This document shows, piece after piece, positions 13,665 through 41,524 of a DNA stretch of 64,000 nucleotides (its first letter is position 1; every line of letters starts with the position of its first letter). The notes under the pieces are model-generated. The model had not been told where the DNA came from. It saw nothing but the letters and a program-made list of their open reading frames with translations, and ran no database searches. The translations under genes were made by a program, and so were the position numbers. Source of the stretch: a bacterium (GTDB lineage: Bacteria > Krumholzibacteriota > Krumholzibacteriia > G020349025); assembly GCA_031362565.1 (NCBI GenBank), contig JANLSU010000101.1, forward strand, positions 1 through 64,000, in the 5' to 3' direction.

Positions 13665-14900
13665 TTACTCGAAGCGGAGTGCGACGATCGGATCCTTGCG
13701 GGCCGCCTGCTGCGCCGGGTAGAGACCGAAGACGACGCCGACCGTGCCCGAGATGCCGAACGACACGAGGACCGAGATCGGCGACACGACCGTGTCCCAC
13801 TTGGCGAACAGGTTGATGGCGAGCGCCATGCCGGCGCCGAGCAGGATGCCGATGATGCCGCCGCTCACCGCGATCAGCACCGTCTCGTTCAGGAACTGAC
13901 CGAGGATGTCGCGCTGGGAAGCGCCCAGAGCCCGCCGGATGCCGATTTCCTTGGTCCGTTCGGTGACCGTCGCCAGCATGATGTTCATGATGCCGATGCC
14001 GCCGACCAGCAGCGACAACGCCGCGATGGACCCCATGACGATGTTGAAGATGCGCTGGGTGCGCTGGCTCTGCGCCAAGAGTTCATCGGGAATGAGGACC
14101 TCGTAGTCCTTGACGCCGTAGTGCCGGCGCTCGAGCACCCGCCGCACGAGCACCGCCGCGGGCACGACGAAGGCGGCATTCCGGACCTGGACGGCGATTT
14201 CTTCCACCTGGTCGGGATAGTCGTCGTCGGTAAAGCGCTTCAGCGCCGTCGCCGCCGGGATATAGACGTCGCGATTGATGTTGCGCAACTTGATCGCCGC
14301 CGTCTTGCCCTCTTTGAAATTCTTCTGGCCCATGACGCCGACGACTTCGAAGTTCTCTTCGCCAATCTTGAGCGACTTGCCGATCGCCTCCCCGATGCCG
14401 AAGATCTCGCGGTGAACTTCCGAGCCCAGCACGCAGACCCGCGCCGCGGTCTTTTCGTCCAGGTACGAAATGAAACGGCCGCTCGACGCCCGCGCGTTGG
14501 TGATCTCGTCGTACATGTCATTGACGCCGACCACTTTGATTCCCTCGGGCCGCTTGGCGCCCAGGTAGACCTCGGCTTCGATGAACTTGATCGGTGAAAC
14601 CGCGCTGGCATAGGGCACCTTGTCGGCGAGATCGCGCGCGTCCTGCCAGCAGAGCCCCTCGGAGACCGTTTCTTCGTTCTCCTGTTGCTCGACGGTCTTC
14701 TCCGCCTTCTTGATGCGGATGTTGTTGGTGCCAAGCAACCGGATCTGTTCCAACGTCTCGCGGCGCGCACCCTCACCAATCGACATCATGGAAATCACCG
14801 CGGCGACGCCGAAAATGACGCCGAACATCGTCAGCAGCGTACGGAGTTTGTGCCGCACGAGGTTCTTCACCCCGGAAGACAGCATCTCACGAACATCCAT
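13665..14900 (-). CDS. MacB/FtsX-family ABC transporter permease
   Basis: LRTLLTMFGVIFGVAAVI and VGGIGIMNIMLATVTERTKEIGIRRALGA motifs. Confidence 0.95.
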   Translation of the reverse strand: MDVREMLSSGVKNLVRHKLRTLLTMFGVIFGVAAVISMMSIGEGARRETLEQIRLLGTNNIRIKKAEKTVEQQENEETVSEGLCWQDARDLADKVPYASAVSPIKFIEAEVYLGAKRPEGIKVVGVNDMYDEITNARASSGRFISYLDEKTAARVCVLGSEVHREIFGIGEAIGKSLKIGEENFEVVGVMGQKNFKEGKTAAIKLRNINRDVYIPAATALKRFTDDDYPDQVEEIAVQVRNAAFVVPAAVLVRRVLERRHYGVKDYEVLIPDELLAQSQRTQRIFNIVMGSIAALSLLVGGIGIMNIMLATVTERTKEIGIRRALGASQRDILGQFLNETVLIAVSGGIIGILLGAGMALAINLFAKWDTVVSPISVLVSFGISGTVGVVFGLYPAQQAARKDPIVALRFE

Positions 14901-14910
14901 GTCGTGCCTC

Positions 14911-15642
14911 CTAAGCTTCCTCGCGCCAGCCGGTGCCGGTCACGGCCGGCCGGGGCGCGCTCTTACGGCTGCCGGTATCGCGCTCCACGACACCGTCGCG
15001 CATCGAAATCACCCGTTCGCTCCATTTGGCCACTTCCGGATCGTGGGTCACGAGGACGAGTGTCGTGCCACCTTGGTGCAGCTTCTCGAAGATGCGCAGA
15101 ATCTCGATTCCGGTCGCCGAATCCAGGTTTCCGGTCGGTTCGTCGGCCAGAATCAGCGGCGGTGCGTTGACGAGTGAACGGGCAATTGCCACACGCTGGC
15201 ACTCGCCGCCCGAGAGTTCGGTCGGCCGGTGCTCGTGGCGGTGCCCCAACCCGACCGCGTCCAAGACTTTCTGGGCCCGGTCACGCCGTTCCTCGCGCGG
15301 CACGGCGGCGTATACCAGCGGCAGTTCGACGTTCTCGACCACCGTCAGCTGCGGAATCAGATTGAAGCTCTGGAAAATGAAGCCGACCTTGCGATTGCGC
15401 AAGCGCGACATTTCCACGTCCAACAGAGTCTCGGCGGCGGTGCCGTCGAGCAAATACCGTCCCGTGGTCGGCCGGTCGAGACAGCCGAGGATGTGCATGA
15501 GCGTCGACTTGCCCGATCCCGACGGACCCATGATGGTGACAAACTCGCCGTAGTCGATCTGCAGGCTGACGCCTTTCAGTGCGGCGACTTCGTTGTCACC
15601 CATGCGGTAGACACGACGCATGTCCTGCACGTCGATCAGCAT
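14911..15642 (-). CDS. ABC transporter ATP-binding protein (LolD/MacB type)
   Basis: GPSGSGKST Walker A, LSGGECQR signature, ILADEPTGNLD. Confidence 0.96.
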   Translation of the reverse strand: MLIDVQDMRRVYRMGDNEVAALKGVSLQIDYGEFVTIMGPSGSGKSTLMHILGCLDRPTTGRYLLDGTAAETLLDVEMSRLRNRKVGFIFQSFNLIPQLTVVENVELPLVYAAVPREERRDRAQKVLDAVGLGHRHEHRPTELSGGECQRVAIARSLVNAPPLILADEPTGNLDSATGIEILRIFEKLHQGGTTLVLVTHDPEVAKWSERVISMRDGVVERDTGSRKSAPRPAVTGTGWREEA

Positions 15643-15654
15643 GGTGCTGCTCCT

Positions 15655-16827
15655 TCAGCTCGGCTGTCCCAAACAAACCTTGTCACCGGGCTTCAAGCCC
15701 GAACGGATGACCACGAACTTGTCGTTGCTGGCGCCGCATTCCACGACCACGCGGTGCGACTTACGTCCACGCTTGAGGTAGGCGACCGTCTTGCCGTCTT
15801 CGTTGAACACGGCTTCGACCGGCACGTAGGTGACGTCCTTCAACTCGTCGATGAGAATTTGGGCGTTCGCCGACAAACCGGGACGCAGGCGCGGATCGGC
15901 GTCCAGCACATCGATGGTGACCTCGAACACCTTGACGCCGGTGCGGCGGCCCGACACTTTGCTCACCTTGTGCTCGGCCAGATTGCCGACCGTCGCCACC
16001 TTGCCCTTGAACTTCATGTCCGGCACGGCGTCGAGCCCGATCGTCACCGGCTGGCCCGGCTGGATCTTTTGGACGTCCATTTCGTTGATCTCGGTTTCGA
16101 CCTGCATGGTCGAGATGTCCGGCAGGTACATGAGCGGCTGGCCCTGGAACGGTGTATCGCCGACCCCGACCTTCTTGCCGTCTTCCGGGCGCCCGACGTT
16201 GGCGTACACGACGAGTCCGGCCATCGGCGCATAGACCGCATTGGCTTCCAGCTTGTGCTTCATTTGGTCGAGCCCACCATGGGCGAACTGGACGTTGGAT
16301 TTCTCCTGGTCGACCGCCGCGTCGTAGGACGCCGTCCTGGACTTGAGTTCGAGGTAGGCAAGACGGGCTTCCTCGACTTCGCTGTCCATGGCGAAGCCCT
16401 TCTTCTTCAACTCGAGCAATGATTGGTAGTTCTTATTGGAGGACTCTTCCTTGAAGTGCTGCGCCTCGAGATCGCTCTCGGCCTTGCGCAGAGAAGCCAC
16501 CGCACGCGAAACCGCGGAGTTTTGCTCGTCGATGCCGATCTTGTACTTCTCGGATTCGAGTTGCACGATCAGCTCGCCGGGTTTGACCCACGACCCTTCC
16601 TTGGCAAGGAACAGAATGAGCCGGTCGTTCGGCGCCCCGATCGTCGCCGAGCGGGTGGCTTTGAGTTCGCCGACTTCGTTCAGCGTCAGGGTCAAGTCGC
16701 CGTGTGTGACGTCCGCCGTCGGCAGGTCGATTTCGTTACCGCTGGAAGCGGCAATTCGCCACCCGACGAGCGCCACGACCACGACGGCGGCGAGAATCCG
16801 GAACCACATTGTGCGCAGGATCTGCAT
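15655..16827 (-). CDS. MacA-like periplasmic adaptor (membrane fusion protein)
   Basis: N-terminal TM anchor, lipoyl-like halves, coiled coil, LRPGLSA and GLKPGDKV motifs. Confidence 0.92.
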   Translation of the reverse strand: MQILRTMWFRILAAVVVVALVGWRIAASSGNEIDLPTADVTHGDLTLTLNEVGELKATRSATIGAPNDRLILFLAKEGSWVKPGELIVQLESEKYKIGIDEQNSAVSRAVASLRKAESDLEAQHFKEESSNKNYQSLLELKKKGFAMDSEVEEARLAYLELKSRTASYDAAVDQEKSNVQFAHGGLDQMKHKLEANAVYAPMAGLVVYANVGRPEDGKKVGVGDTPFQGQPLMYLPDISTMQVETEINEMDVQKIQPGQPVTIGLDAVPDMKFKGKVATVGNLAEHKVSKVSGRRTGVKVFEVTIDVLDADPRLRPGLSANAQILIDELKDVTYVPVEAVFNEDGKTVAYLKRGRKSHRVVVECGASNDKFVVIRSGLKPGDKVCLGQPS

Positions 16828-16949: not shown

Positions 16950-17543
16950 TTACTCCGGAACCGGCGTCTTGTTCTTGGTGCTTTCGTCGCACACAACCGC
17001 GACGCCGAGCACGACGAGGCGGTGCAGAGAAGCGTCGACCGCTTCGATGCGACCTGTGATCTCATCCTCGTCACTGTTCTTCTCCGGTTTCGGATCGAGG
17101 CGCTTGATTTCGATCTCGTCGGCGAGCAGCGTCCCGTCCTTTTGGATCTGCCCTTCGGCCTCGACGCGGTCGCCTTGCCGCAGTTCCGAGAAGGCGACAT
17201 GCCGTCCGGGGCCGCCCTGTATTTCGGTCCGGTGGTTCGTGACCACCTGCAGTCCGTTGCCCATCGTCAGGCGCTTGCGCGCCACATCGAGCACCGTGAC
17301 CGTACCCTTGACCTCGACCTCGTCCAGATCACCGCGCAGCACCTTGATCTCGCTCGCCCGGACGACCTGGCCCGCACCCAACGGGCCTTCAACCTTGACC
17401 CAGACGCCTTTCGCGAGGCGTGGAAACCATTCGCCGAGCGGCGGCCGCCGGCTTTCGCCGCGGGCAGGGGCCACGACGGCAATGGCGAGCAGCGCCGCGG
17501 CGATCCAGTTGCTTGTGCGTGCCTGCTGCAAGGATCGCCGCAT
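16950..17543 (-). CDS. DUF5666-repeat secreted protein
   Basis: Signal peptide; repeated 'G.v..vD......v.G..v..d..T' units; LRQGDRVEAEG...LLADEIEIK. Confidence 0.75.
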   Translation of the reverse strand: MRRSLQQARTSNWIAAALLAIAVVAPARGESRRPPLGEWFPRLAKGVWVKVEGPLGAGQVVRASEIKVLRGDLDEVEVKGTVTVLDVARKRLTMGNGLQVVTNHRTEIQGGPGRHVAFSELRQGDRVEAEGQIQKDGTLLADEIEIKRLDPKPEKNSDEDEITGRIEAVDASLHRLVVLGVAVVCDESTKNKTPVPE

Positions 17544-17663: not shown

Positions 17664-17675
17664 CCGCCGGCGGCC

Positions 17676-18134
17676 TCAAGCCTCGATCTCACAATCCTCG
17701 TCGCAGCGCACCAGGAAGCCCATTACGGACAGTGTCCGCGCGTGTGGATCCATGGCCGTAATGGCACTTTCGATCTGGTCCATCTCGTCCGGCGTCCGTG
17801 ATTTAGTCTTGATCTTCACCGGCTCGAACCGGCGCCCATCGAGAGCGCGCCCCTTGGTCTTGACGCGCGTTCCAGGCTGGATCTCCTCCAGGCGCAGTGC
17901 CTGCTTGTCCAAGCCCTTCATTTCGACGCCATTGCCGATTGCGACCGCGAGCCCGAGGATGCGGAGGGTTCCCGACGCCGCATCGGCGCTCTCCACCATC
18001 GCTTCGATCTCGTCCATGTCGCCGTCGCTCTTGATCGAAATCGTCTGGGCGCGAAACGCACCGTCGGCGAACGCGCCTTCGACGCTGATGCGCATACCGA
18101 TCCGCAAATCGCTGAAGTCGTAGAAACCTTGCAT
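17676..18134 (-). CDS. DUF5666-repeat protein
   Basis: LRIGMRISVEG...AQTISIK repeat units; AAGGAG RBS. Confidence 0.75.
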   Translation of the reverse strand: MQGFYDFSDLRIGMRISVEGAFADGAFRAQTISIKSDGDMDEIEAMVESADAASGTLRILGLAVAIGNGVEMKGLDKQALRLEEIQPGTRVKTKGRALDGRRFEPVKIKTKSRTPDEMDQIESAITAMDPHARTLSVMGFLVRCDEDCEIEA

Positions 18135-18198: not shown

Positions 18199-19449
18199 TC
18201 AGCGCCGTACGAGCGCCGTCGTCGCCGCCAGATCCGCCGCGCGCCGTGCATTGGCGGCCCACGTGCGCTCGCGGTGCGTCCATTCGCGGCCGCGCTCGGC
18301 GCGTCCGAGCGCCGTCTTTGGATCCGCCAGCACTGCTTCGATGGCTTGCGCCAACGACGCCGGGTCGCCCGGTACCGCCGGCTCGACGTAACCCGCTTCG
18401 ACGAGATCGGTAATCTGGCCGAGACGCGAAGCCACGACCGGCTTCCCGGCGGCCAGGGACTCGTAGACCTTGAGCGGCGAGAAATAAAAGTCCTCGGCCG
18501 GCAGATACGGCGCCACCGTCAGATCCATTGCGTCCAGCAGTTCCGGCACGCGGGCGTGATCCACGGCGCCCGTGAACACGACCGCACCGTCCAGGCCGCG
18601 TGACCGCGCCGTGGCCCGGAGCGCGTCACCCTTGGGACCATCGCCCACCAAGAGCAACCGAGCCGTGGGCCAGCGCGGATGCAGCAGTGTGAAGGCGTCC
18701 AGCAACACGTCGGTCCCGTGCCAGCTCTTCAAGCTGCCGACAAAGCCGATCACCGGGCCCAAGCCCAAACCGAGTGCTTGGCGGACGCGCGCCCCTTGGC
18801 CGGCGGCCGCTTCAAAGCGTTCGACGTCGACCCCGTTCGCGACCACATGGACGCGATCGCGCGGTGCACCCTCGGCGCAAGCCCGGGCAGCGAGTTCGGC
18901 GGAAACCGCCAACATGGCATCGGTCTCGCGCCAGACGCGCGCCTCGACGGCGCGCGCCACGTCGCCCAAGTGCAAACCGCGGGCGCGTTCCTGTTCGAGA
19001 CAGAGCGGCGCGTTCACTTCGAGCACATGCGGCACACCGAGCGCCCGCGCCAAGCCCAGTCCGCCGGCGCCAAAGAGTGCATAGCGTTCGTAGACGAAGT
19101 CCGCACCGAAGTCGCGCAAGCGTGGCGCTGCGGCTTCGAGCAACTGGTTGTAGAGAATGTTGCGGACTTCTTGCGCGACTCGGGACGGATGTCCGGCAGC
19201 GGTCGGCCCGAAGGCGCGATCGGCGCGCCGGAGTGCATCGAGAGCCGGCAGGTGCGGTTCGAGATCCACCGGATCGAGCACCGACAATTGAAAATCGGCA
19301 TTGCCGGCGCGTTCGATGGCCGGCGACAACACTTGCACCGTGTGGCCAAGCCCGGCGAAGGCGTTCGCCATCGCCCGCAGGTGAATCGACGCGCCCTTGT
19401 GCCCGTAGACCGGGACGCCGAAGTCGCTGCACACGTAGAAGATCCGCAT
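18199..19449 (-). CDS. Glycosyltransferase family 4
   Basis: GHKGASIH, FVYERY, LEVNAPL, GFVGSLKSWHG and FYFSPLKVYE motifs. Confidence 0.93.
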   Translation of the reverse strand: MRIFYVCSDFGVPVYGHKGASIHLRAMANAFAGLGHTVQVLSPAIERAGNADFQLSVLDPVDLEPHLPALDALRRADRAFGPTAAGHPSRVAQEVRNILYNQLLEAAAPRLRDFGADFVYERYALFGAGGLGLARALGVPHVLEVNAPLCLEQERARGLHLGDVARAVEARVWRETDAMLAVSAELAARACAEGAPRDRVHVVANGVDVERFEAAAGQGARVRQALGLGLGPVIGFVGSLKSWHGTDVLLDAFTLLHPRWPTARLLLVGDGPKGDALRATARSRGLDGAVVFTGAVDHARVPELLDAMDLTVAPYLPAEDFYFSPLKVYESLAAGKPVVASRLGQITDLVEAGYVEPAVPGDPASLAQAIEAVLADPKTALGRAERGREWTHRERTWAANARRAADLAATTALVRR

Positions 19450-19457: not shown

Positions 19458-20975
19458 TCAGCCCTTCAAGGTGGCGAGCGGCCGGACCCGCACCACGGGT
19501 TGTGCAATCTCGAAGCCGCGCATCGTGTCGATGACTTTGCGAATGTCTTTGAACGACCCCGGTGCCTGTTCGCCGATGTTCATCGTGCCGGCGCGGTAGA
19601 GCCGGATTTCGCGCGCCTTCATGTCGGCCTCGACGGCCGCCTCGGACCACTGCGCCATGGCCTCCGGCTTGTCGAGCACCCGCCCGGCGCCGTGGTTGGC
19701 GGAATGGAACGTCGCGGCATTGCCTTCGACGCCGACGCCGACGTACGAGTCGCTGCCCATCGAACCCGGGACCGGAATCGGTTGGCCGGTGTGCGAGAAA
19801 ATCGGATGCCCGGCGCAGCGCGACGGCGGCATCGCGACGTTGGCTCCATGGCGGTGCACCCACAACGGTTCGCCGCCGTGCATTTCCTGTTGAATCGTCA
19901 CATGCGAGCAATCGAACAAGAGCGGCATCGCGAGCGACGGATCGGCGAAGGTCGAGCGCACCGCGGTGCGCAGCGCCTCGGTGATCGCCATCCGGTTCAC
20001 GAAGCCGAAGTTGGCGGCGGCGTACACGGCGCGGATGAAGCGCCGGCCTTGGTACGAGTCGGCTGGAATCGTGAAGAACTGCCGGTGTGCGAACATGAAC
20101 TTCCAGATGAGCGACAGATCCTGCATCGACGGCCGCGCATGACGCAGATGGAATTGCGCCTTGTCCCAATCGAACGCCAGGCGTTCGCCGAAGGCCTCGG
20201 CACGGGCGTGCGTCGAGTAATAACGCATCGTCAGTCCGCCGACGGCGCCGGAGCCGGTGTGCATCATGAAGAGCACCTTGCCGAGCCCAAGTCCCAGCCG
20301 GCGCGCTTTGTCGGGGTCGAGAATTTCGACGATCTCCTGGGCTTCCAGGAAATGGTTGCCGGCGCCCATCGAGCCGAATGCCCGCCGCGCCTTCTTGATG
20401 GCGGCATCCGGCACCGCGTCCATGATTTCGTCCGGATCGATGTCCTGGCCGGCGAACATGCTGCCTTGCCGTTCGATGAAGTCGAGTTCGCCGGCGTCGA
20501 GCCCGAAATGCTCGCGGGCCCAAGTGGCGCCCTCGGTGAGGGCGCGCTTGACGTCCTTCTTCTTCAACACCGCGTCGCGTTGCGGCGGAATCGGCACGGT
20601 GCGTTGTAATTCGGCATACAGGGCGTCCAGCATCGGACCGGTGCAGGCACTCGCCGGCAAGTCGGTCGCCACCATGCGCATGCCGCAATTGAGGCCCTTG
20701 TCGATAGCGAACGGAATGAACCGGTCGCGGGTCGCGAGCACGATGCCCGTCGGGGCCGGATTGCGGCCTTTGTAGTGCACGTCGGGCATCGCCACGATGG
20801 GATGCTCGATGCCGGCAATGCGGGCCATTTGCGTCAGTTCGGCGAGCGCGTTCTGCCCCGGCATGATGTCGGGGGTGACGAAGAGGTGCACCGGCGTGCG
20901 CGCGCCGGCACCCGGCGGCAGCACGATGGGCGACGCCGCGGCCGGGATATTTTCGGTTGTGATGCGGTCGTTCAT
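19458..20975 (-). CDS. rtcB: RtcB-family protein (divergent RNA-ligase homolog)
   Basis: MPDVH, NCGMR, GNHFLE, HTGS, PGSMG, HGAGR and C-terminal LKG motifs; an alternative start at 21002 overlaps the upstream stop. Confidence 0.9.
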   Translation of the reverse strand: MNDRITTENIPAAASPIVLPPGAGARTPVHLFVTPDIMPGQNALAELTQMARIAGIEHPIVAMPDVHYKGRNPAPTGIVLATRDRFIPFAIDKGLNCGMRMVATDLPASACTGPMLDALYAELQRTVPIPPQRDAVLKKKDVKRALTEGATWAREHFGLDAGELDFIERQGSMFAGQDIDPDEIMDAVPDAAIKKARRAFGSMGAGNHFLEAQEIVEILDPDKARRLGLGLGKVLFMMHTGSGAVGGLTMRYYSTHARAEAFGERLAFDWDKAQFHLRHARPSMQDLSLIWKFMFAHRQFFTIPADSYQGRRFIRAVYAAANFGFVNRMAITEALRTAVRSTFADPSLAMPLLFDCSHVTIQQEMHGGEPLWVHRHGANVAMPPSRCAGHPIFSHTGQPIPVPGSMGSDSYVGVGVEGNAATFHSANHGAGRVLDKPEAMAQWSEAAVEADMKAREIRLYRAGTMNIGEQAPGSFKDIRKVIDTMRGFEIAQPVVRVRPLATLKG

Positions 20976-21001
20976 CGGAGTTTCACCTCGGTCTGCAGAC
21001 A

Positions 21002-23987: not shown

Positions 23988-24134
23988 GACGGCTCCTGAA
24001 CAATCCGTACGATCGCTCGCCGGCCGAACCGGTTGAGACGAATACGAGGCAACGACGCAGAACCAACGCGGGCGAGCTGGGGTGGCCGGTAGACGGATGT
24101 TCCTCATCGTCCCGACCTGCCGCACGCAACTTCT

Positions 24135-33591: not shown

Positions 33592-34944
33592 TCAGGCAGC
33601 CGGAAACCACGCTTCGGCGGCGGTCAAGATTGCATCGACGCGCTCCGGCGCCATGCGCTTCACACACTTGTAGGCTTGGCTGGAGAGCAACAGCGCGCTC
33701 GTGTACCAGCGCACGCGGCGGTCGGGCCAGCCCCACGGGACGCCGGCGCCATAGGCCGCACCGAACGCGGTGACCGCGGCATCGATCGCTTCGGTTTCGG
33801 TCTTCGAGCCCAAACCTGCCACCGCCAGATGTGCGAAGAAGCGGCCGACATCGTAGGTCGGATCACCCAGTCCCGCACCATCGAAATCGATGAAGGCGAC
33901 TTGGCCTTCGGCGTCGAAGATGTGGCTCGTCTTGAACGAACCGTGCACCGGGGCCGGCGGCACCGGCGGCAAGCCGGGCGCGGCGGCGGCGAGCCGTTGG
34001 CGGAGCGCTGCGACCCGGGCGGCGAACTGCGGATAGGCGCGCTCGATCTTCAGGGACGAGGCGGTGAGTTCTTCCAACTCGCGCTCCAGGCCAAGACCCG
34101 GGCCGAGGGTGAGATTCGAGGCATGAAACGCCGCCAGGGCGCTTGCCACCGGACCCGCGAGCGCGGCCAAATCCATGCTACCGGCATCCTTCGAAAACGA
34201 GTTCCCCGGCAGCATCTCCTGCCACACGATGTCGTGCTCGGCGTCGAGGCCGTAAGGCATTGGGATGCGCAAGCGGCCGCTGCGGACCGCGTCGCTGGCC
34301 GCGAGTTGCGCCAGCACGTCATACGCCGCGCGACCCAATCCCGGTTGATACGCTTTGCCATAGAACCAACGCTCGACAATGCCGCCGGGGCCTTCCCAAC
34401 GCACCCGGTAGCGATAACCACAGCGCTGTCCCGGCACGTACTTGCCGACACCAAAGCGCACGTCTTGGACGTGCCCGGGAGCCGGCAATCCGAAAGCCGC
34501 CGGATCGCGCTCGAGGAGCGCCGTGATCGCATCGGTCGAAGCGAGAATTGCCAGACCGGGCACGTTCGGATCGTTCGGATAGGCCCACACGACCATGCCC
34601 AGATCGGCCAGCAAGGCGACGGCAGGACCCAACTCGGGCGGTGTCAGCGTCGCACGCAACGCGCGCCGGTACACCGACGCCGATTTCTCGTCCGGGTAGA
34701 TCTTGCCGTAGAAAAACTGCTCGGCCCGTTGGCCGTCGGGAGCGCGTAGTTTCGCTTCGAAGGTCAGGCGGCAGCTCCGGCCGGGTTTGTAGTACACCCG
34801 CCGGAGCTTGATGCCGCGAACCTGCAGTCCCGCCGCTACGAAGCCGGCGTTCGACTGCAAGCTGGCCGCGAATCGATCCGCATCGAATACGACGCTCAGC
34901 TGCGGGAAAGTGCAGTCCTGCGGCAGTTTCTTGAGCTTGGGCAT
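33592..34944 (-). CDS. APH-like phosphotransferase, probable pseudokinase
   Basis: HGSFKTSH (Asp replaced by Ser), FIDFD, GDPTYDVGRF; GGAGG RBS. Confidence 0.85.
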   Translation of the reverse strand: MPKLKKLPQDCTFPQLSVVFDADRFAASLQSNAGFVAAGLQVRGIKLRRVYYKPGRSCRLTFEAKLRAPDGQRAEQFFYGKIYPDEKSASVYRRALRATLTPPELGPAVALLADLGMVVWAYPNDPNVPGLAILASTDAITALLERDPAAFGLPAPGHVQDVRFGVGKYVPGQRCGYRYRVRWEGPGGIVERWFYGKAYQPGLGRAAYDVLAQLAASDAVRSGRLRIPMPYGLDAEHDIVWQEMLPGNSFSKDAGSMDLAALAGPVASALAAFHASNLTLGPGLGLERELEELTASSLKIERAYPQFAARVAALRQRLAAAAPGLPPVPPAPVHGSFKTSHIFDAEGQVAFIDFDGAGLGDPTYDVGRFFAHLAVAGLGSKTETEAIDAAVTAFGAAYGAGVPWGWPDRRVRWYTSALLLSSQAYKCVKRMAPERVDAILTAAEAWFPAA

Positions 34945-34962: not shown

Positions 34963-36849
34963 TCAGCCGGCCTGATCACCGGTGCCGCCGGCGCCATACT
35001 GCAACTCGTACAGGTTGCGGTAGGTGGCGCTGCGTTCCATGAGTTCTTCGTGCCGGCCTTCCTCGGCGATCTTGCCGTCCTCGATCATGAGGATGTGATC
35101 GGCATTGATGATCGTCGAGAAACGGTGCGCGATCACGAAGCTCGTGCGTCCTTGCATGAGCTTCGAGAGCGCCGTGTTGATCTGCGCTTCGGACAGTGCA
35201 TCGAGGCCGGTCGTGGGCTCGTCGAGAATCAGGATCGGCGCGTTGCGCAAGATGGCGCGCGCGATGCTGATGCGCTGCTTCTGGCCGCCCGAGAAGTTCA
35301 CACCGCGCTCTTCGACCATCGTCTCGTAGCCCAATGGCAGGGCCATGATGAAGTCGTGCGCCTGGGCGGCCTTGGCCGCGGCGATGACTTCCTCATCGGT
35401 CGCGCCCGCATTTCCAAAGGCGATGTTTTCGCGCAGCGTCTTGCGGAACAGGAAGTTGTCCTGCAGCACGACGGTGATCTGGTTGCGAAGTGAAGTGAGC
35501 GTGTACTTGCGGATGTCCTGTCCGTCGATGACCACCGCTCCCACAGTGGGATCGTAGAACCGCATCAGCAGGTTCGCCATGGTGGATTTCCCGGCGCCGC
35601 TCGAACCCACGAGCGCCACGGTCTGGCCGGCGCGGGCCCGGAACGTCAGCTTGTGGAGTACCGTTTGGCCCTTTTTGTACGCGAAGGTCACGTCGCGGAA
35701 CTCGACGTCGCCGTTGAAGTCCGGCGCCGGGTTGGCATCGGCTGCGTCGTGCACCACGACCGGTTGCTCGACCAGTTCCACGAGGCGCTCGCCGCTCACG
35801 ACCGCCTGGGCGAGGTCCACCAGAATTTCCGAGAATTTGTCGATCGGCCCATAGAGTTGCTTCAGGTAGGCCGAGAACACCAGCAGGTCGCCCGGCGAGA
35901 GTTCGTTGTTCAGCACCCGGCGCGCGCCCCAATAGATCACCGCGGTCGTGCCGACGGCGATCGTCACCTGCACCGCGCGCTTGAAGGACTTGGAAAGCTG
36001 GGCGGTACGAATTTCCGCGTCCAAGCTGCGCTGGTTCTGCTTCTGGAACCGCGCGTGCTCCTGCGATTCGGCCTGGTAGGCCTGAATCAAGCTGATGGAC
36101 AGCATGTTCTCTTGGACGATGGAGGCGACGTCGCTTTCACGGTTGCGCTTGTTCTTTTGCTGTTCCTTGACGCGCACCGAGAAGAAATGCGTCGCGAAGT
36201 AGAGAATCGGCACGATCGAGAAGGCGAGCAAGAACAGCTTCCAGTCCATCCAGATCATCGTGGCGCAGATGCCGACGAGCCGGAAGATGTTGCTGCCGAA
36301 ATCCTGAATCGAATCGATAAAGAGTTTCTTGAGCTTGTTGATATCGGAGGTCAGGCGCACCACGAGGTCGCCGGAGCGCGACTTGTCATGGAAGTTGAGG
36401 GACAGCGCCTGCAGGTGGACGTAGATGCGCTCGCGCACCTCGACGACCATGGTCTCCCCGACCACCGACATCAGATACTTGTTCATGTAGCTGAAGAAGG
36501 CGCTCGAGATGGCGATGCCGATGATCGCCAGGCTGATCGGCAGCAGGAGTTGTACCGGTTCCGTACCGAACCAACGCCCCATCCACGCGGCGTTGTCCGG
36601 CAGGGCCCGGCCGAGCAGGACGTGATCGAAAATGAGTTTCAGCGGCCACGGCTGCGCCAGGTCGGACGCCACCGAGAGCAGCATCCCGAGAATCGCTACG
36701 GCCAGCAACTTCCAGTGCCGGAAGAGGTCGGGCGCGAACGTGCGCCAGATCTTCTTGTAGCCCTGGTAGTCGAAGTCGACGGCGACGTCCTCGGTGTCGC
36801 CCTTCGCCTTCGCCTTCTTCTTCTTTTTCTTGTCCTTATCCTTGGCCAT
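34963..36849 (-). CDS. MsbA-like ABC exporter (fused permease and ATPase)
   Basis: AQPWPLKLIFD, TM domain, GSSGAGKST, FSGGQKQR and ILDEPT motifs. Confidence 0.95.
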   Translation of the reverse strand: MAKDKDKKKKKKAKAKGDTEDVAVDFDYQGYKKIWRTFAPDLFRHWKLLAVAILGMLLSVASDLAQPWPLKLIFDHVLLGRALPDNAAWMGRWFGTEPVQLLLPISLAIIGIAISSAFFSYMNKYLMSVVGETMVVEVRERIYVHLQALSLNFHDKSRSGDLVVRLTSDINKLKKLFIDSIQDFGSNIFRLVGICATMIWMDWKLFLLAFSIVPILYFATHFFSVRVKEQQKNKRNRESDVASIVQENMLSISLIQAYQAESQEHARFQKQNQRSLDAEIRTAQLSKSFKRAVQVTIAVGTTAVIYWGARRVLNNELSPGDLLVFSAYLKQLYGPIDKFSEILVDLAQAVVSGERLVELVEQPVVVHDAADANPAPDFNGDVEFRDVTFAYKKGQTVLHKLTFRARAGQTVALVGSSGAGKSTMANLLMRFYDPTVGAVVIDGQDIRKYTLTSLRNQITVVLQDNFLFRKTLRENIAFGNAGATDEEVIAAAKAAQAHDFIMALPLGYETMVEERGVNFSGGQKQRISIARAILRNAPILILDEPTTGLDALSEAQINTALSKLMQGRTSFVIAHRFSTIINADHILMIEDGKIAEEGRHEELMERSATYRNLYELQYGAGGTGDQAG

Positions 36850-36907: not shown

Positions 36908-37852
36908 TCACAGCCGTGCAGTGCCGCGTTCCAAACACAGAGCGAGATCCTGGCGCCAGCCGAGCGGCTGTTTGCGCCACAAGATCATGGCGCGCCGCAC
37001 GTAGCAAAACGCTTCGTAGTGCGGCAATGCCGGCAACTCACCAGTACCGCTTTGCGCCGCGTAGGCCGCCAGAAAACGGTCGCCCAGAGCCCGCCCGGCG
37101 TCACCCAAGTGCGCTTCGAGACCGACGCGGAAGTTGGCAACGTCCAGGGCCCGGTCGGCGACACACAATCCGTCCAGGTCGAGCACGTACACGGTGCCGG
37201 CGTCGACGAACAATTGCGTCGGTGCGAAGTCACCGTGCGAGGTCACAGGACTTGCGGCGACTTGGGAATCGCGCGCGAAGATCGCCGCGACGAGTGCCCG
37301 CAGACGCGGCGCTAGTTCCGGCAGCGCTGCGGCGAGCGCCTCGATTCCCGGGTGGCACGTGCGGCGCATCTGCGCCTCGAGGTCGGCGTGTCGCGCCGCC
37401 GGCACATGGGTCGCGTGCAGAGTCGCGAGCGCCCGCCCCAATCGCTCCGCCAGCCCCGGCGTCTCACGCACATCGTCCCAGCCGCGCACCGGTGCCCCGG
37501 GCACCCACGCTTCCACGATCATTCCCAAATCATCCCAGCAGCCGAGCAACTTCGGCGCCCGGGTGTCCCCGGCGAGCGCCGCATTCATTTCGCGTAATAC
37601 GGCAGCATGCCGCGCCGCCCGATCCTTGCGGTACATCTTGCCGACGACCCGCGTGCCGTCGGCGAATGTGTACGCCAGCACACAGCGCTTGCCGCGCACG
37701 TGCTTGAGCACCTGCGCGACAGGCGTGCCACGGTCGCCGAGCAGAGCGCCAAGCCAAGCGCCGGCCCGCGCCGGGTCGAGCGCGCCGGCCAGCCCCGGCA
37801 GTGCCGCATCCTGCGGCGCCGGGTCGCTCGTGCGGGCAAATGAGTCCTGCAT
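36908..37852 (-). CDS. APH-like phosphotransferase
   Basis: HGDFAPTQ, VLDLD, ALDVANF. Confidence 0.87.
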   Translation of the reverse strand: MQDSFARTSDPAPQDAALPGLAGALDPARAGAWLGALLGDRGTPVAQVLKHVRGKRCVLAYTFADGTRVVGKMYRKDRAARHAAVLREMNAALAGDTRAPKLLGCWDDLGMIVEAWVPGAPVRGWDDVRETPGLAERLGRALATLHATHVPAARHADLEAQMRRTCHPGIEALAAALPELAPRLRALVAAIFARDSQVAASPVTSHGDFAPTQLFVDAGTVYVLDLDGLCVADRALDVANFRVGLEAHLGDAGRALGDRFLAAYAAQSGTGELPALPHYEAFCYVRRAMILWRKQPLGWRQDLALCLERGTARL

Positions 37853-37881: not shown

Positions 37882-38886
37882 TCAGCCTTGCACCTCGGCC
37901 AGGCTCTCCAAGCTGTCGTCGATGAACTTGCGCGCCTTTTTCTGCCAGCCGTCTTCCTGGAAGCGCAGGCGCTTGCAGGCGCGCCGCAGGTGCGTGATGG
38001 CTTCGAAGAGCGGCACGCGCTTCAGAATGTCGTCGGGCATCGATTTGAAGTATTCATCGAGGAACGCGTCCGCGAGCAACGGCGCGCTCGGAATCTTGCG
38101 TGCCTTGCCCTTCAAGAAGACCAGCACGTTGCCCAGATCGGCGGCCGGATCGGCGACGCAGCAGGCGTCGAAATCGATGACCCAGGTGCGTTCGGGTGCG
38201 ACATGCACCTGGCCCATATGAAAATCACCGTGAATGAGCGCCGGTGCACTGTGCGCGAATGCCGCCTCGAGCCGGGTGGACTCGCGCAGAATCTCGTCGA
38301 CCGCCGAACGCAATTCCGGCGCCCGCTCGCGCAGCACCTGCGGGCGCGGGTGGCAGCGGCGGATGTGATCCTGCATGCGATACGGCTCGCCGACCCGCAC
38401 CGGAGATCGGTGCAACTTGGCGAGCGAGCGCGCCATGGCACGCAGCGACGGCTCGGCAAGATCGGTTTTCAAGAAGTCCTTCACCGGCGCACCGCCGATT
38501 TCCTCCTGCAAGAGCAATGACAGACGTGGCAGGTAGGCGGCCACCGCCGGGATCGAGATCTGGTCCGCCGCATCGCGCTCGAACCCAGCGACCCACAGTT
38601 TTTGCATGAGGTCGGTCACCGGCTCACCGGCATCGCCCTTGTAGACCTTGCCGATGAGTGACGTCACCCGGCGCTCACCGGCGGTCTCGGTGTGCAGCCG
38701 GTAGCGCAGCACACAACGCTGCTTACGCCGGCGCAGCACTTCCACCTCGAGATGGGTCAGACGCGTGTCCGGGCTTTCCCAACGCGCCAGCTCGGGTTCG
38801 AGCACCTCGCGCATGCGGCGCGGATCGCTCGCATCCTTGAGCGTGAACAATTTGTCGGTGCCGTAGAAAGAATCATCGTGGTTCAT
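37882..38886 (-). CDS. APH-like phosphotransferase
   Basis: IGKVY, HGDFHMGQ, VIDFD, ADPAADLGN. Confidence 0.88.
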   Translation of the reverse strand: MNHDDSFYGTDKLFTLKDASDPRRMREVLEPELARWESPDTRLTHLEVEVLRRRKQRCVLRYRLHTETAGERRVTSLIGKVYKGDAGEPVTDLMQKLWVAGFERDAADQISIPAVAAYLPRLSLLLQEEIGGAPVKDFLKTDLAEPSLRAMARSLAKLHRSPVRVGEPYRMQDHIRRCHPRPQVLRERAPELRSAVDEILRESTRLEAAFAHSAPALIHGDFHMGQVHVAPERTWVIDFDACCVADPAADLGNVLVFLKGKARKIPSAPLLADAFLDEYFKSMPDDILKRVPLFEAITHLRRACKRLRFQEDGWQKKARKFIDDSLESLAEVQG

Positions 38887-38951
38887 GCCATGCTCCAAGG
38901 GCGGACCGCCGGAAGGCGGCCGGACAACCAAGCTTGATGGGACCTTAGGAT

Positions 38952-40283
38952 CTAAACCGCCCCGTCCTGACGCGCGACGTCAGAACGGGCCGGGGGTGTC
39001 GTACCCGCGTCCACAGAACGCAGGCCGAGTCCTTCGTGGAATAAAGCCAGCAGACGGCGCGTGTTGCGCGCGACGTCGAATTCCGCCTCCACTTTGCGCC
39101 GGCCCTCCTGGGCGTACCGGCGCCGGAGCGCCGGGTCGCGCAGCAGGGTTTCCATTGCGTCCGCCAGCGGCTGCGGGGCCCGCGGCGGCACCAACATGCC
39201 GTTTGTCCCATGCTCGACGAGTTCCGGCACCCCGGAAACGTCGGTCGAAACCACCGGCAGTTCCATGGCCATCGCCTCGACCAATACATTCGGCAATCCG
39301 TCGCGGTCGCCGTTGTCGAGCACCTGGCACGGCAGCGCGAACAGCGTCGCGTTACGATAGATCTCGATGAGCTCGTCTTGCAGAACGGCACCCGGGAAGG
39401 TGACCTGTTCCTGCAGATCGAGCGAGTGAACCAATTCCTCGAGCCCGGCGCGCTGCGGGCCCTCGCCGTAGATCGTGCACCGCAGCTTGACGCCGCGGTC
39501 ACGCAGCAGGGCGCAGGCCCGGATCAGGGTGTCGAAGCCCTTCTTTTCGACCAAGCGTCCGACCGACACGATGACCGGCACCCGGTGGCCTTCCGAACGG
39601 GCCGCGATCGGCACGATGTGATCGCGGTCGCCGCGCGTGAAACGCGCCACTTCCAAACCGTGGTAGATGCGATGGATCGGCGCCAGGCCGCCGCCGACCT
39701 CGTGCAAGTATTTTTCGTTGGCACCCGTACACGTGACCACGAACGACGCTTCGCGCATTTTGTCGCGCAAGATCTCGCGCTCGGTCAGGTACAGATCCTT
39801 GGCGTGGGCCGTGAAGCTGAACGGCGTGCCGGACAGCCACTTCACGAACATCGCCACGGTAGCCGGGCCATGACAGAAGTGCGCATGAAAATGGCGGACG
39901 GTGGTGCCACGCAGCGTCCAACCGACCAACCAGCCCGCCTGCATGAAGCGCCGCAAGGTGGACGTGCTGCGCTGGCGCAGGCAACGCGACAGCGTGTAGC
40001 GGAGCGCGCGCAGATACGGCCTCGGGCGCCGCGCGAAGAGTGCCAAGTGCACCGGCAGCATCAACGGCAAAGCGAGAACGATGCGCTCCGGCAGATACCG
40101 CACCGGGGCGCGGACGTTGTCGACATTCGCCTGGCGCGCGCCGCCTTCCGGGCGCTTGAGCGGGAAAATGCGGATCTCCAGCCCGAGCCGTTCCAGCTCC
40201 AGGATCTCGTTCGTCACGAAGGTCTCGGAGATGCGCGGGAAGCCCTTCGGCAGGTATCCCACGATCAAATCGTTGCGTCTCAT
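38952..40283 (-). CDS. Glycosyltransferase family 4 (WcaL-like)
   Basis: GFPRISETFVTNE, HAHF, FTAHAKDLY, GRLVEKKG and DRDGLPNVLVEAMA motifs. Confidence 0.94.
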   Translation of the reverse strand: MRRNDLIVGYLPKGFPRISETFVTNEILELERLGLEIRIFPLKRPEGGARQANVDNVRAPVRYLPERIVLALPLMLPVHLALFARRPRPYLRALRYTLSRCLRQRSTSTLRRFMQAGWLVGWTLRGTTVRHFHAHFCHGPATVAMFVKWLSGTPFSFTAHAKDLYLTEREILRDKMREASFVVTCTGANEKYLHEVGGGLAPIHRIYHGLEVARFTRGDRDHIVPIAARSEGHRVPVIVSVGRLVEKKGFDTLIRACALLRDRGVKLRCTIYGEGPQRAGLEELVHSLDLQEQVTFPGAVLQDELIEIYRNATLFALPCQVLDNGDRDGLPNVLVEAMAMELPVVSTDVSGVPELVEHGTNGMLVPPRAPQPLADAMETLLRDPALRRRYAQEGRRKVEAEFDVARNTRRLLALFHEGLGLRSVDAGTTPPARSDVARQDGAV

Positions 40284-41524
40284 CGCATCGACCTTGCCCG
40301 TACTTCGTCGGCCACGTAACGGCTGACGCGCGGCAACCCATCCGAGTCCAGCACTTGCCAAGCCTCCGGATGCGGTACAGCCGAGGGCTCGAACAAGATG
40401 CGTTCGATCGTGGCGGATAGATGCTCGGGTGTGAGTTGTTCGGGATGGATCATGTCCACGAGCCCGAGTGCTTCCATGCGTACGGTGCGAATCCACTGCT
40501 CGGTCACGGGCTGGACACGCGGCACGATGATCGCTCGTTTATTGAGGGTGAGGATCTCGCACACAGAGTTGTATCCGCCCATCGAGACGACCAGATCCGA
40601 GGCGTTCATGTAGTTCAAGAGTTCGGTCGAAAAATCGACGATCTTGGCGATCCCTGGCGTCGTGCTGGCCTTGAGCAGCAGGCGTTCTTTTTTGTAGAGC
40701 GGCATTTCCGGGCCCAGCACGAGCACACTTTGCACCTGGCGCTCCGGATCTCCCGACGCCCGCTTCGCCATGTAGCGCAGCCCCTTGAGATACGCTTTCA
40801 TCAGATCGTAGCCGTCGCCGCCACCGCCTGCAGTGACCAGGACGAAACGGCCGGCGCCGATTCCCAGCTCGCGGCGCACTTCGTCGCGGTCGCGCAGCGC
40901 CGGGCTATGCATGATGTAGCCGCAATAGTTCATCTTCTTGGCGACGCTTTCCGGGAAATTGTATTCGGCCACCATGTCGTAGACCTTGGGGGACCCGAAC
41001 ACCCAGATCGAATCGTAGAACTTCTCGAGCGTCTCGTAGAAGTTGCGCTGCTCCCAGAGTTTGCGCACGTGCTCCGGATCGTCCAGAATGTCGCGCAAGC
41101 ACAGCACGACCTTCGAGGTCGGCTGCACCGTCTTGAGCCACTCGATGCTGCGCAGGAGTTCACCCTTGATCCCCGTCGGGACCTTGTCCACGAGCACGAT
41201 GTGCGGCCGGAAGCCGCGGAACGTGGCATGGATGAGCTGCTCGCGCATCTCACTGATCTCGCGGAACGACGTCCGCAGGTATTTCGAAACGTACTTGTTG
41301 CGCGCCTGCCGGTGCACGCACGGCAACTTGACGTAGTCCATCTTGGGCGACAGCCGGAAAGAATGCGCCATCGATGAGCCGGTCAACAGCAGGATCGACA
41401 GATCGGGGATTTCTTTCGCGAGCTGGTCGCAAATCTTCAGGGTGCGACGCAGATTACCGAGCCCGAAGGCGTCGTGGGAGTAAACCAACAATCGCGTGGT
41501 GCGGCGAGGAGTCGAGACAGCCAT
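40280..41524 (-). CDS. Predicted glycosyltransferase (COG4671/GT28-C-like)
   Basis: YSHDAFGLGNLRR, LRDILD, TAGGGGDG, SMGGYNS and PRV...EQ..R motifs. Confidence 0.9.
   Translation of the reverse strand: MAVSTPRRTTRLLVYSHDAFGLGNLRRTLKICDQLAKEIPDLSILLLTGSSMAHSFRLSPKMDYVKLPCVHRQARNKYVSKYLRTSFREISEMREQLIHATFRGFRPHIVLVDKVPTGIKGELLRSIEWLKTVQPTSKVVLCLRDILDDPEHVRKLWEQRNFYETLEKFYDSIWVFGSPKVYDMVAEYNFPESVAKKMNYCGYIMHSPALRDRDEVRRELGIGAGRFVLVTAGGGGDGYDLMKAYLKGLRYMAKRASGDPERQVQSVLVLGPEMPLYKKERLLLKASTTPGIAKIVDFSTELLNYMNASDLVVSMGGYNSVCEILTLNKRAIIVPRVQPVTEQWIRTVRMEALGLVDMIHPEQLTPEHLSATIERILFEPSAVPHPEAWQVLDSDGLPRVSRYVADEVRARSMR

Follow-up and report, generated by a model that had tools for sequence, protein, structure and literature searches.

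A block of 23 genes, located in a 64,000-nucleotide stretch of DNA from a bacterium of the class Krumholzibacteriia (assembly GCA_031362565.1, contig JANLSU010000101.1, positions 1 to 64,000 of the forward strand; this whole stretch is called the window), has a gene order that is far beyond chance, as it recurs in other phyla. The block combines five glycosyltransferases (GTs), seven proteins of the APH fold, an ABC exporter, a histidine kinase (HK) and a response regulator (RR), a histidine phosphatase, a protein of the PEPCK/HprK fold (HprKl), a divergent RtcB (RtcB-C), two DUF5666 proteins and a MacAB-type pump (Table 1). We class it as a putative glycoconjugate assembly and export locus whose enzyme set matches no studied pathway. 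There is, in our judgement, an even chance that these genes form one conserved, operon-like system, which would assemble an anionic (phosphorylated) glycoconjugate on the cytoplasmic side of the inner membrane before exporting it; product and chemistry we infer from comparative evidence.

Results

Conservation of the gene order

The genome to which the window belongs (G000; window on contig C51) is an assembly of 5.4 Mb in 133 contigs and is 100% complete. The GC content of the window is about 65%, hence raw lists of open reading frames (ORFs) are crowded; when the GC content of codon positions was used to pick the coding frames, one minus-strand chain emerged. ORF calling guided by the third codon position and a checked gene model gave 23 consecutive coding sequences, all intact, which run from position 41524 down to 13665 and span 28 kb. 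An initial annotation of the window had counted 22 genes, taking MacAB as two genes where there are three; its same-strand chain and its series of domains were reproduced by ORF calling and by Pfam and NCBIfam models with curated cut-offs. The gaps between genes measure -4 to 132 bp. Start and stop codons overlap by 4 nt at six junctions (GT28/GT4_a, APH5/APH6, APH6/APH7, HK/RR, GT4_c/histidine phosphatase, histidine phosphatase/HprKl), which agrees with the many such overlaps noticed before, and by 1 nt at the junction HprKl/RtcB. GGAGG-like sites precede many of the starts.

A search with a profile of HprKl led to at least 31 loci in species-representative genomes, all of them metagenome-assembled genomes (MAGs). 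One weak archaeal match was dropped and 30 bacterial loci were kept, designated by L numbers; G001 and G002 are two genomes of the same family as G000, and P numbers denote representative proteins. Among the matches listed are loci from KSB1/Zhuqueibacter, Calditrichia, a bin labelled Cytophagia, Eisenbacteria, Verrucomicrobiia, Planctomycetota, Haliangiales, Gammaproteobacteria and unclassified bins; the nearest named homologues of the window proteins come from Candidatus Krumholzibacteriia MAGs. Neighbours on the same strand were identified by tblastn with the window proteins and by Pfam on the remaining ORFs. For the 30 listed loci, the denominators below are the loci with enough flanking sequence. 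Upstream of HprKl, the RR was found in 23/28 loci, the HK in 20/23, a long APH-fold gene in 20/22, GT4_d in 17/20 and another GT4 in 17/21. Downstream, RtcB was found in 17/21, DUF5666a in 8/17 by tblastn (and by Pfam also in L015 and L018), a TolC-like outer membrane efflux protein (OEP) in 8/14, MacA in 9/14, the MacB ATPase in 6/13 and the MacB permease in 6/12. The recurring order is [ABC-ABC]-APH(long)n-[phytase-like]-GT4_d-GT4-APH(long)/[sigma70]-HK-RR-HprKl-[Kelch]-RtcB-[AsnB]-DUF5666-OEP-MacA-MacB.

Four loci from three genomes extended further upstream, where they show GT28(-GT4_a)-APH1-(DUF5666b)-(APH2)-ABC-ABC and thus match the order in the window. GT28, APH1 and the ABC pair occur in all four, and GT4_a, APH2 and DUF5666b in three each; long APH-fold genes follow the ABC pair in two of them (five and two copies). 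The whole 28-kb arrangement, including the multi-APH expansion, is common to Krumholzibacteriia, KSB1 and Verrucomicrobiia, and the core of the cluster recurs also in Calditrichia, Eisenbacteria and other MAGs. The initial annotation had reckoned with the case that its sub-blocks are never neighbours elsewhere; the GT28-GT4-APH-APH-ABC part, the multi-APH part, GT4, HK/RR, the HprK-like gene, RtcB, DUF5666 and MacAB are arranged likewise in MAGs of KSB1 and of Verrucomicrobiia. The smaller clusters of COG4671, GT4, ABC and APH genes that it mentioned for other phyla were seen as a sub-block in G001, L035 and L073-L075, always beside an HprK-like gene, which is the search query. G001 has a compact version with one APH gene (HK-RR-GT28-GT4_a-APH1-ABC-HprKl-GT4_d-DUF5666-OEP-MacA-MacB), and in G002 the genes HK-RR-GT4_c-HisPase-HprKl-RtcB lie on a 5.9-kb contig. 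Some KSB1-like genomes carry several HprKl loci (L014, L024, L027 and L038 in one bin; L015 and L032; L022 and L025), and these differ in their accessory genes, being either of a phytase/sigma70/Kelch type or of an AsnB type.

The PEPCK/HprK-fold protein

HprKl is a rare protein. A word-indexed search of 5.8e9 proteins gave 60 matches, and every named one is called "hypothetical"; when 1.84e9 representatives were searched exhaustively with a profile, 164 clusters reached E<=1e-30 and 449 reached E<=1e-10, and a search of the ESM Atlas gave unnamed clusters only. The protein stays below the cut-off of the HprK/P model PF07475 (17.5 bits vs 33.3) and of the NCBIfam models for HprK-related kinases A and B (33.7 and 24.7 bits vs 200), which are its sole NCBIfam matches; a profile search of the PDB gave HprK at E 0.008. 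Its AlphaFold model is confident (predicted local distance difference test, pLDDT, 91.6). In a Foldseek search with this model, ATP-dependent PEPCKs ranked first (E 2e-6), followed by HprK/P. VIA-align superposed HprKl and PEPCK with Z 14.3 over 280 residues, covering both domains, and HprKl and the P-loop C-domain of HprK/P with Z 12.5-14.3 and a root-mean-square deviation of 2.2-2.8 over 128-134 residues. The Walker A motif GGVGGVGKTT is conserved, as is an invariant Glu-Asn at the place where HprK has Asp-Asp; the segment "IADD" of HprK aligns with "SEN" of HprKl. The name "HprK-like" given in the initial annotation is appropriate with respect to the fold of the P-loop C-domain, yet the scores lie below the family cut-offs and by its fold the protein is equally PEPCK-like. 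HprKl thus shares Walker A and C-domain fold with HprK/P without reaching that family, and superposes as a whole, with two domains, on PEPCK. From the HprK-related kinases of lasso-peptide clusters it differs by having neither an HPr-type nor a lasso context.

Long matches in the representative search revealed fusions of HprKl with RtcB (P0188 and P0225, the former with the motifs of the cluster-type RtcB), with GT4 on either side (HprKl-GT4 in P0184, GT4-HprKl in P0187), with GT2 (GT2-HprKl, P0274) and with an ABC protein (ABC-HprKl, P0183), some of which could be gene-calling read-throughs. Even so, six independent architectures, together with gene adjacency, link HprKl with RtcB, with GTs and with the exporter. 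A complex prediction for RtcB-C and HprKl, run without controls, had a score of 0.00 and was not used as evidence either way.

A divergent RtcB travels with the cluster

RtcB-C aligns end to end with the RtcB of P. horikoshii (E 3.5e-54). In the RtcB RNA 3'-phosphate ligases of RtcBA repair operons and of tRNA splicing, the histidine of the HGAGR motif is the GMP nucleophile, further histidines and a cysteine are metal ligands, and the C-terminal lysine contacts guanine. RtcB-C has in common with these enzymes the PF01139 domain, the nucleophile (NHGAGR), the three metal histidines (GNHF, HTGS and CSH, generally xSH), the cysteine of NCG and the C-terminal Lys-Gly (LKG). Its PF01139 score is nevertheless only about half of that of canonical RtcBs from relatives of the same class (297 vs 510-580 bits). 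We aligned 18 cluster RtcBs with 16 canonical ones, the latter taken from one class. The canonical MPDxHxGYG is changed to LPDxH(R/Y)KxRN with a two-residue insert, G(F/Y)DINCG to DxGI(N/C)CG, and HNxx to HV(S/T)I. In the column of the metal-ligand aspartate, 18/18 cluster RtcBs have a glycine, and an aspartate is found two residues earlier. A tree separates the two groups by a long branch with support 100/100, the 16 canonical sequences again being those of one class. An RtcB was found in 32 of the 61 genomes searched: G002 has both types, G001 the canonical type only and G000 RtcB-C only. Judged by its residues, RtcB-C appears to be a remodelled paralogue, which travels with the cluster and is catalytically equipped. 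No gene for RtcA, RtcR, archease or PrfH was seen beside it; its partners, by fusion or adjacency, are a P-loop kinase and GTs.

We tentatively propose, while holding it to be doubtful, that the RtcB-C clade together with the PEPCK/HprK-fold kinase has left nucleic-acid repair, and that it may use GTP to activate sugar phosphomonoesters, which, in the making of a glycoconjugate, would yield either bridging phosphodiesters or sugar intermediates linked to GDP. As a way to phospho-glycans by kinase and ligase, this non-RNA route would be independent of CDP- or UDP-activated donors and widespread in uncultured bacteria of the FCB group.

The same data can be read as a mosaic of independent neighbours, namely a glycan or kinase module, an RtcB for RNA repair that has an accessory kinase and is driven by a two-component system, and an efflux pump of the MacAB type. 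RtcB-C would then be a genuine RNA ligase, as is suggested by its preserved nucleophile, metal ligands and guanine-contacting lysine and by its being the only RtcB found in G000; moreover, the cluster of G001 has no RtcB, and roughly one third to one half of the evaluable listed loci do not have MacAB or OEP. A mosaic is at odds with the one-strand order conserved across phyla, with the natural fusions of HprKl to RtcB, GT4, GT2 and an ABC exporter, and with the start/stop overlaps that join the histidine phosphatase, HprKl and RtcB. RtcB-C, in addition, branches as a clade of its own in which the active-site loops are altered, and in G002 a canonical RtcB has been retained besides it. We regard the mosaic as unlikely.

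APH-fold proteins

All seven APH-fold proteins exceed the gathering score of PF01636 (44.7-99 bits vs 23.2), and to this extent the seven kinases listed in the initial annotation were recovered. An alignment shows that the catalytic aspartate of the H-x-D loop is kept in APH1, APH2, APH5 and APH7 and is replaced by serine in APH3, alanine in APH4 and threonine in APH6, so that the term "kinases" overstates what three of the seven can be called. The Mg-binding aspartate (DFD) and the ATP-binding lysine are invariant in alignments of nine and of 12 sequences. A scan with regular expressions found an HG[TS]xxxxH protein adjoining the HK in 15/30 listed loci, and an APH of the HGA...EQ type upstream of GT4_d. 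In a FastTree phylogeny of 35 APH-fold proteins, which omits ORFs missed by the regular expressions, APH1, APH2, APH3, APH4 and APH6 cluster with copies from KSB1 and Verrucomicrobiia, and APH5 and APH7 have no clear partner. APH2 forms an orthogroup with KSB1 copies, APH4 with one KSB1 copy, APH3 belongs to a cross-phylum orthogroup, and APH6 groups with the HG[TS]...H proteins that adjoin the HK in other phyla. Because these orthogroups are conserved across phyla, the variants lacking the aspartate are not products of decay.

The nearest relatives of known function are kinases of small molecules. The AlphaFold 2 model of APH6 (pLDDT 88) has an extra N-terminal domain; the best Foldseek matches are mycobacterial maltokinases over their full length (4u94, 4o7o, 5jy7; E 4e-11 to 8e-10), next come 5-methylthioribose kinases, and choline kinases and, lower in rank, a glucosamine kinase were also found. 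The only PDB sequence matches of APH1 are 5-methylthioribose kinases (E 6e-4), and APH5 has weak matches to the NCBIfam models of maltokinase and glucosamine kinase. Like the Mak/Pep2 maltokinases, the 5-methylthioribose kinases and the actinobacterial glucosamine kinase, the model of the long APH aligns over its full length including the N-terminal cap. It differs from these APH-fold sugar kinases by an identity of only 12-16%, by the serine, threonine or alanine that replaces the catalytic aspartate in three window paralogues and in the HK-adjacent orthogroup, and by its context, as no TreS or GlgE partner is present in the cluster. APH1 has 156 homologues, all from metagenomes or MAGs; among them are the fusions APH1-DUF5666 (P0138, P0179) and GT4-APH (P0099). 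A fusion of GT28-C with APH was also found (P0326).

The matches of these proteins also include peptide kinases, and modification and export of a peptide or protein was considered, either in the manner of a ribosomally synthesized and post-translationally modified peptide (RiPP) or as protein glycosylation and phosphorylation. The APH-fold and HprK-like enzymes would transfer phosphate to Ser/Thr, the GT4s would glycosylate, and the ABC and MacAB proteins would export. The class V lanthipeptide kinase LxmK is the top NCBIfam match for six of the seven APHs (20-51 bits vs a cut-off of 315) and for APH7 the best of several weak matches; LxmK and TvaE are among the fold matches, HprK-related kinases A and B are the sole NCBIfam matches of HprKl, and some relatives have Asn-synthase homologues (four loci) or sulfotransferases. 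HPr-kinase homologues occur in lasso-peptide clusters. Against this, gaps of at most 132 bp contain no precursor-sized ORF and leave no room for one, and no lasso protease, RiPP recognition element (RRE), LanC or lyase domain was matched by Pfam or NCBIfam. A genuine GATase domain is present in the Asn synthases, which are accessory; DUF5666b offers no conserved Ser/Thr/Tyr that could be a substrate, and the entire length of HprKl corresponds to the two-domain PEPCK, which is a kinase of small molecules. Modification of a peptide or protein is, in our view, improbable. A lasso-peptide cluster, which the HprK-like, Asn-synthase and sulfotransferase genes had brought to mind, was rejected, as no protease/RRE, precursor or core cyclase was matched by Pfam or NCBIfam or has room in the gaps.

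Further genes of the block

Table 1. Genes of the block in the window, listed from the first to the last gene of the minus-strand chain
Gene	Position	Strand	Length (aa)	Assignment and evidence
GT28	40280..41524	-	414	GT28-C-like (MurG/UGT-type; "COG4671-like" in the initial annotation) GT; Pfam Glyco_tran_28_C E 5e-11
GT4_a	38952..40283	-	443	GT4; Glycos_transf_1 E 6e-42
APH1	37882..38886	-	334	short, HGD loop (HGDFHMGQ); APH E 1.5e-15
APH2	36908..37852	-	314	short, HGD; APH E 6e-14
ABC	34963..36849	-	628	MsbA-like half-ABC exporter, transmembrane and nucleotide-binding domain; ABC_membrane + ABC_tran
APH3	33592..34944	-	450	long, catalytic Asp replaced (HGS...SH); APH E 1.5e-16
APH4	32231..33577	-	~448, start inferred	long, catalytic Asp replaced (HGA...TQ); APH E 6e-12
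APH5	30882..32210	-	442	long, HGD; APH E 2e-11
APH6	29494..30885	-	463	long, catalytic Asp replaced (HGT...AH); APH E 6e-14
APH7	28250..29497	-	415	long, HGD; APH E 5e-28
GT4_b	27041..28207	-	388	GT4; Glyco_trans_1_4 E 7e-30
HK	24876..27008	-		sensor histidine kinase; HisKA + HATPase_c
RR	24169..24879	-		OmpR/PhoB-type response regulator; Response_reg + Trans_reg_C
GT4_c	22689..24107	-	472	GT4; Glyco_trans_1_4 E 5e-26
HisPase	22069..22692	-	207	histidine phosphatase (PGM branch); CobC-type model 116 bits, below cut-off 163
HprKl	21002..22072	-	356	P-loop kinase-like, predicted PEPCK/HprK fold; Hpr_kinase_C E 3e-3
RtcB-C	19458..21002	-	505-514	RtcB; PF01139 E 3.5e-88, 297 bits (cut-off 27)
GT4_d	18199..19449	-	416	GT4; Pfam GT4
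DUF5666b	17676..18134	-	152	no signal peptide; weak DUF5666 match
DUF5666a	16950..17543	-	197	predicted secreted; DUF5666 E 7e-20
MacA	15655..16827	-		MacA-type membrane fusion protein; HlyD_D23 + HlyD_3, RND_mfp above cut-off
MacB ATPase	14911..15642	-		MacB-type ABC ATPase; ABC_tran E 2e-34, MacB and LolD models top
MacB permease	13665..14900	-		MacB-type permease; MacB_PCD + FtsX

Transmembrane segments are present in the HK and in the ABC, MacA and MacB proteins; there are none in the GTs, the APH-fold proteins, HprKl and RtcB. Orthologues of the GT28-like protein, which has no sequence relative in the PDB at E<=0.01, head the cluster in G001 and in the KSB1 and Verrucomicrobiia loci. The orthologues of GT4_a are 41-53% identical and hold the same position in the loci of relatives; the best NCBIfam match of this protein is an EpsE-type GT4 (211 bits), the cut-off of 400 not being reached. 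GT4_d is the most conserved GT of the system, with orthologues that are 39-53% identical, and its nearest solved relatives are the HepE-like Alr3699, MshA, PimA and GlgM. GT4_c has an orthologue in G002. The histidine phosphatase is accessory and lies within the cluster in G000 and G002 only.

The ABC exporter was called MsbA-like in the initial annotation. This is correct for its architecture, while its score against the MsbA model TIGR02203 (458 bits vs a cut-off of 602) shows that it is not an MsbA equivalog. In relatives, two ABC genes in tandem, 43-50% identical, immediately precede the APH block, an arrangement compatible with a heterodimer. Of the two DUF5666 proteins, DUF5666a has a signal-like hydrophobic N-terminal stretch, read from its translation, and is found upstream of OEP-MacA-MacB in other phyla. 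The presumably cytoplasmic DUF5666b has no hydrophobic N-terminus; its orthologues in KSB1 loci are flanked by APH1 and APH2, and it corresponds to the domain that is fused to APH1-type kinases. Because it contains no conserved Ser/Thr/Tyr, its invariant residues being Gly, Asp, Phe and Ala only, the sequence suggests a binding or scaffold role rather than that of a substrate. The pump in the window is represented by the MacB_PCD + FtsX permease, the ABC ATPase and the HlyD-type adaptor; orthologues of the permease are 57-62% identical across phyla, and an OEP is encoded with the pump in G001 and in 8/14 other evaluable listed loci. The HK has transmembrane segments at residues 13-31 and 436-454, which enclose a periplasmic domain of about 400 residues. 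A phosphate-starvation regulon, for which PhoB/PhoR as top sub-threshold models and the phytase seemed to speak, was set aside, as the PhoB score of 231 bits is close to those of YycF (220) and MtrA (211) and hence generic.

Accessory genes in related clusters

Homologues of beta-propeller phytases with C-terminal tails of the type IX secretion system (T9SS) lie inside the cluster in five loci; examples are L030 14091-15500 and L014 1662-3038 from Calditrichia and KSB1 loci (E 2e-74 and 5e-55). Homologues of Asn synthase (AsnB) with a real GATase domain occur as accessories in L017, L022, L027 and L037. One KSB1 genome has genes for a sulfotransferase, an ATP sulfurylase and an adenosine 5'-phosphosulfate (APS) kinase between the APH block and GT4_d (L073 18554-19234; L017 4-1403, G064:C17), the sulfurylase and the APS kinase being for synthesis of 3'-phosphoadenosine 5'-phosphosulfate (PAPS); this points to a sulfated variant of the product. 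Further accessories of relatives are Kelch propellers, sigma-70 factors, an ATP-grasp ligase, sulfotransferase/GT8 proteins and YjbH. An anionic (phospho- and/or sulfo-) carbohydrate product accommodates these genes better than would a function concerning peptides or RNA, yet they vary among loci and give no proof for the product of the window. A 502-aa ORF with no Pfam match (L073 7535-9043) separates the two ABC exporter genes in a KSB1 cluster.

Surroundings of the block

The flanks of the block are unrelated to it: they encode an electron transfer flavoprotein, an acyl-CoA dehydrogenase, an M36 peptidase with a T9SS-type tail, MoaE and a transposase fragment. Just upstream, on the same strand, lies a gene for a PMT_2 (GT-C) and TPR membrane protein (42217-44457), of which no counterpart was seen in related loci and which is probably outside the system. 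The block thus ends where it had been delimited initially. A 12-nt direct repeat (TGACAGAGCCGA / TGACAGAGCGGA; 41599-41652, spacing 42 nt), 75-130 nt upstream of the start of the first gene, may be the site of a regulator or due to chance. Directly downstream of MacB, the gene at 10547-13534 encodes the large M36 (fungalysin-type) metallopeptidase, which has a P-domain, CarboxypepD_reg and FlgD_ig/CHU_C (T9SS-type) C-terminal domains; a scan for terminators downstream of MacB found none. At a distance of 6 kb downstream from the cluster, the plus strand carries an inositol monophosphatase family gene (6996-7811), and the IS1595/ISXO2-like transposase fragment of about 100 aa at 46535-46837 lies in a stretch of lower GC content (0.57).

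In agreement with the initial annotation, which had recognised no Wzy, Wzc, Wza or priming transferase, Pfam and NCBIfam matched no Wzx/Wzy/Wzc/Wza, Wzm/Wzt or priming transferase domain between 13665 and 41524, and the block does not have the features of a Wzx/Wzy-dependent, synthase-dependent or Wzm/Wzt-dependent polysaccharide locus. A separate small polysaccharide locus with no linkage to the cluster is found at 57486-61201; it consists of a hexapeptide-repeat acyltransferase (57486-57986, minus strand), a Wzx/MurJ-like flippase (58047-59417, minus strand), which is 17 kb away from the cluster, and a GT4 (60071-61201, plus strand). A PADLOC scan left 16 of 17 proteins with no match and gave a single weak match of DrmC (E 3e-4) to the histidine phosphatase, and no defence system. 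In a search of sequencing runs, the stretch was present in one DNA run from a freshwater sediment metagenome, and no RNA run was listed.

Discussion

Proposed function

We propose the following course of events for the anionic glycoconjugate system. Synthesis of a short glycan, on an acceptor that is probably lipidic, would fall to the GT28-like enzyme and the GT4s. Sugar hydroxyls would be phosphorylated by those APH-fold enzymes that bear the catalytic aspartate and by the P-loop HprK/PEPCK-like enzyme, and the paralogues lacking the aspartate could be non-canonical enzymes or scaffolds. RtcB-C may use GTP to activate (guanylylate) a phosphomonoester, as RtcB does with an RNA 3'-phosphate; the activated phosphate would be joined to a hydroxyl, giving a phosphodiester, or left as a GDP-linked intermediate. 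The MsbA-like ABC exporter would flip the product, and the periplasmic DUF5666 protein and MacAB, in relatives with a TolC-like protein, would move it outward. The HK with its large periplasmic domain and the OmpR-type RR would control the operon. The link to sugars is indirect and consists of the GT domains, the sugar-kinase-like folds and the sulfotransferase/PAPS and phytase-like accessories of relatives.

Several observations weigh against this proposal. The loci were found through HprKl, and the counts are consequently conditional on this gene; many loci stem from related KSB1 MAGs and are not independent (one bin gives four, two bins give two each). DUF5666a, OEP and MacAB were seen in only about half of the evaluable listed loci, and the 122-bp gap in front of MacA contains no OEP/TolC gene in the window, where relatives have one. 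In the cluster, Pfam and NCBIfam revealed neither a priming transferase nor an acyltransferase, and no gene for a polyprenol-linked step or for nucleotide sugars. As the sole RtcB found in a 100%-complete genome, RtcB-C could still serve RNA repair, and the cluster of G001 does entirely without an RtcB. The peptide kinases LxmK and TvaE match the fold of APH6 with E-values only slightly weaker than those of the sugar kinases, and LxmK, the top sub-threshold NCBIfam match of six APHs, ties with the maltokinase model for the seventh. Finally, because three of the seven APH-fold proteins lack the catalytic aspartate, the attribute "multiply phosphorylated", which the initial annotation gave to the product, is weaker than the gene count implies.

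A product of a different kind would be a soluble small molecule that is secreted or periplasmic, for instance an oligosaccharide bearing phosphates or a compound resembling nucleosides or aminoglycosides, in which case some APHs might serve self-protection or be inactive relics. This is in line with the lack of a lipid-related gene in the cluster, as judged by Pfam and NCBIfam, with the small-molecule sugar kinases as closest solved relatives of the APH-fold proteins, and with the resemblance of HprKl to PEPCK; ABC and MacAB-TolC pumps do export small molecules, and phosphatase and phytase-like accessories are present. The wide, vertically mixed distribution, the dedicated envelope sensor kinase, the 2-4 copies per KSB1 MAG and the five GT genes that no tailoring oxidoreductases or aminotransferases accompany are, however, unlike the picture of known antibiotic clusters, and conservation of the aspartate-less APH orthogroups across phyla means that they are not relics. 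To a soluble small molecule we assign a low probability.

With regard to the glycoconjugate system, the initial annotation had described a single coherent system with no characterised counterpart. Coherence is borne out by the conserved order and by the fusions that link kinase, GT, exporter and RtcB, and no characterised pathway was matched. The listings and abstract openings of a literature search (the cluster; RtcB in the context of GT, HPr kinase, APH or MacB; DUF5666; COG4671) contained no paper on the system, and no named or studied homologue of it was found, nor a close relative of HprKl or of the GT28-like protein with a solved structure; among the matches listed, all carriers are MAGs. 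If the proposal is true, the block represents a large and widely distributed envelope or secretion pathway whose carriers, as far as found, are all uncultured lineages such as Krumholzibacteriia, KSB1, Calditrichia and Eisenbacteria. It would provide the first non-RNA task for an RtcB, which would be categorically new if the chemistry were confirmed, and a function for an unnamed PEPCK/HprK-fold family. The conserved APH-fold paralogues lacking the aspartate would be test cases for non-canonical kinase-fold chemistry, and thanks to the fusions and to the small size of the HprKl-RtcB pair, two or three recombinant proteins would suffice to address the central question directly in vitro.

Comparison with known systems

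In the assembly of the lipopolysaccharide (LPS) core, the glycan grows and receives its phosphates while attached to a lipid at the inner leaflet, and flipping follows. The window likewise has cytoplasmic GT4s and sugar kinases of the protein-kinase fold beside an MsbA-type half-ABC exporter, which correspond to the WaaG-type GT4s, the WaaP/WaaY kinases and MsbA. Its kinases are, however, APH- or maltokinase-like and do not belong to the Kdo/WaaP family, and no GT9 heptosyltransferase or Kdo (3-deoxy-D-manno-octulosonic acid) genes were matched; conversely, waa loci are not known to contain an RtcB, a PEPCK/HprK-fold protein, DUF5666, MacAB or a two-component system of their own. With MacAB-TolC and with DevBCA-TolC, the exporter of heterocyst glycolipids, the block shares the permease, the separate ATPase and the HlyD-type adaptor, and in relatives also the TolC-like OEP; the models of DevA, DevB and DevC are among the matches of the pump. 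The differences are the secreted DUF5666 protein that precedes the pump and the lack of an OEP gene in the window. Judged by these analogies, the system would work most like LPS-core assembly followed by an exit of the DevBCA/MacAB type, while being a member of none of those families.

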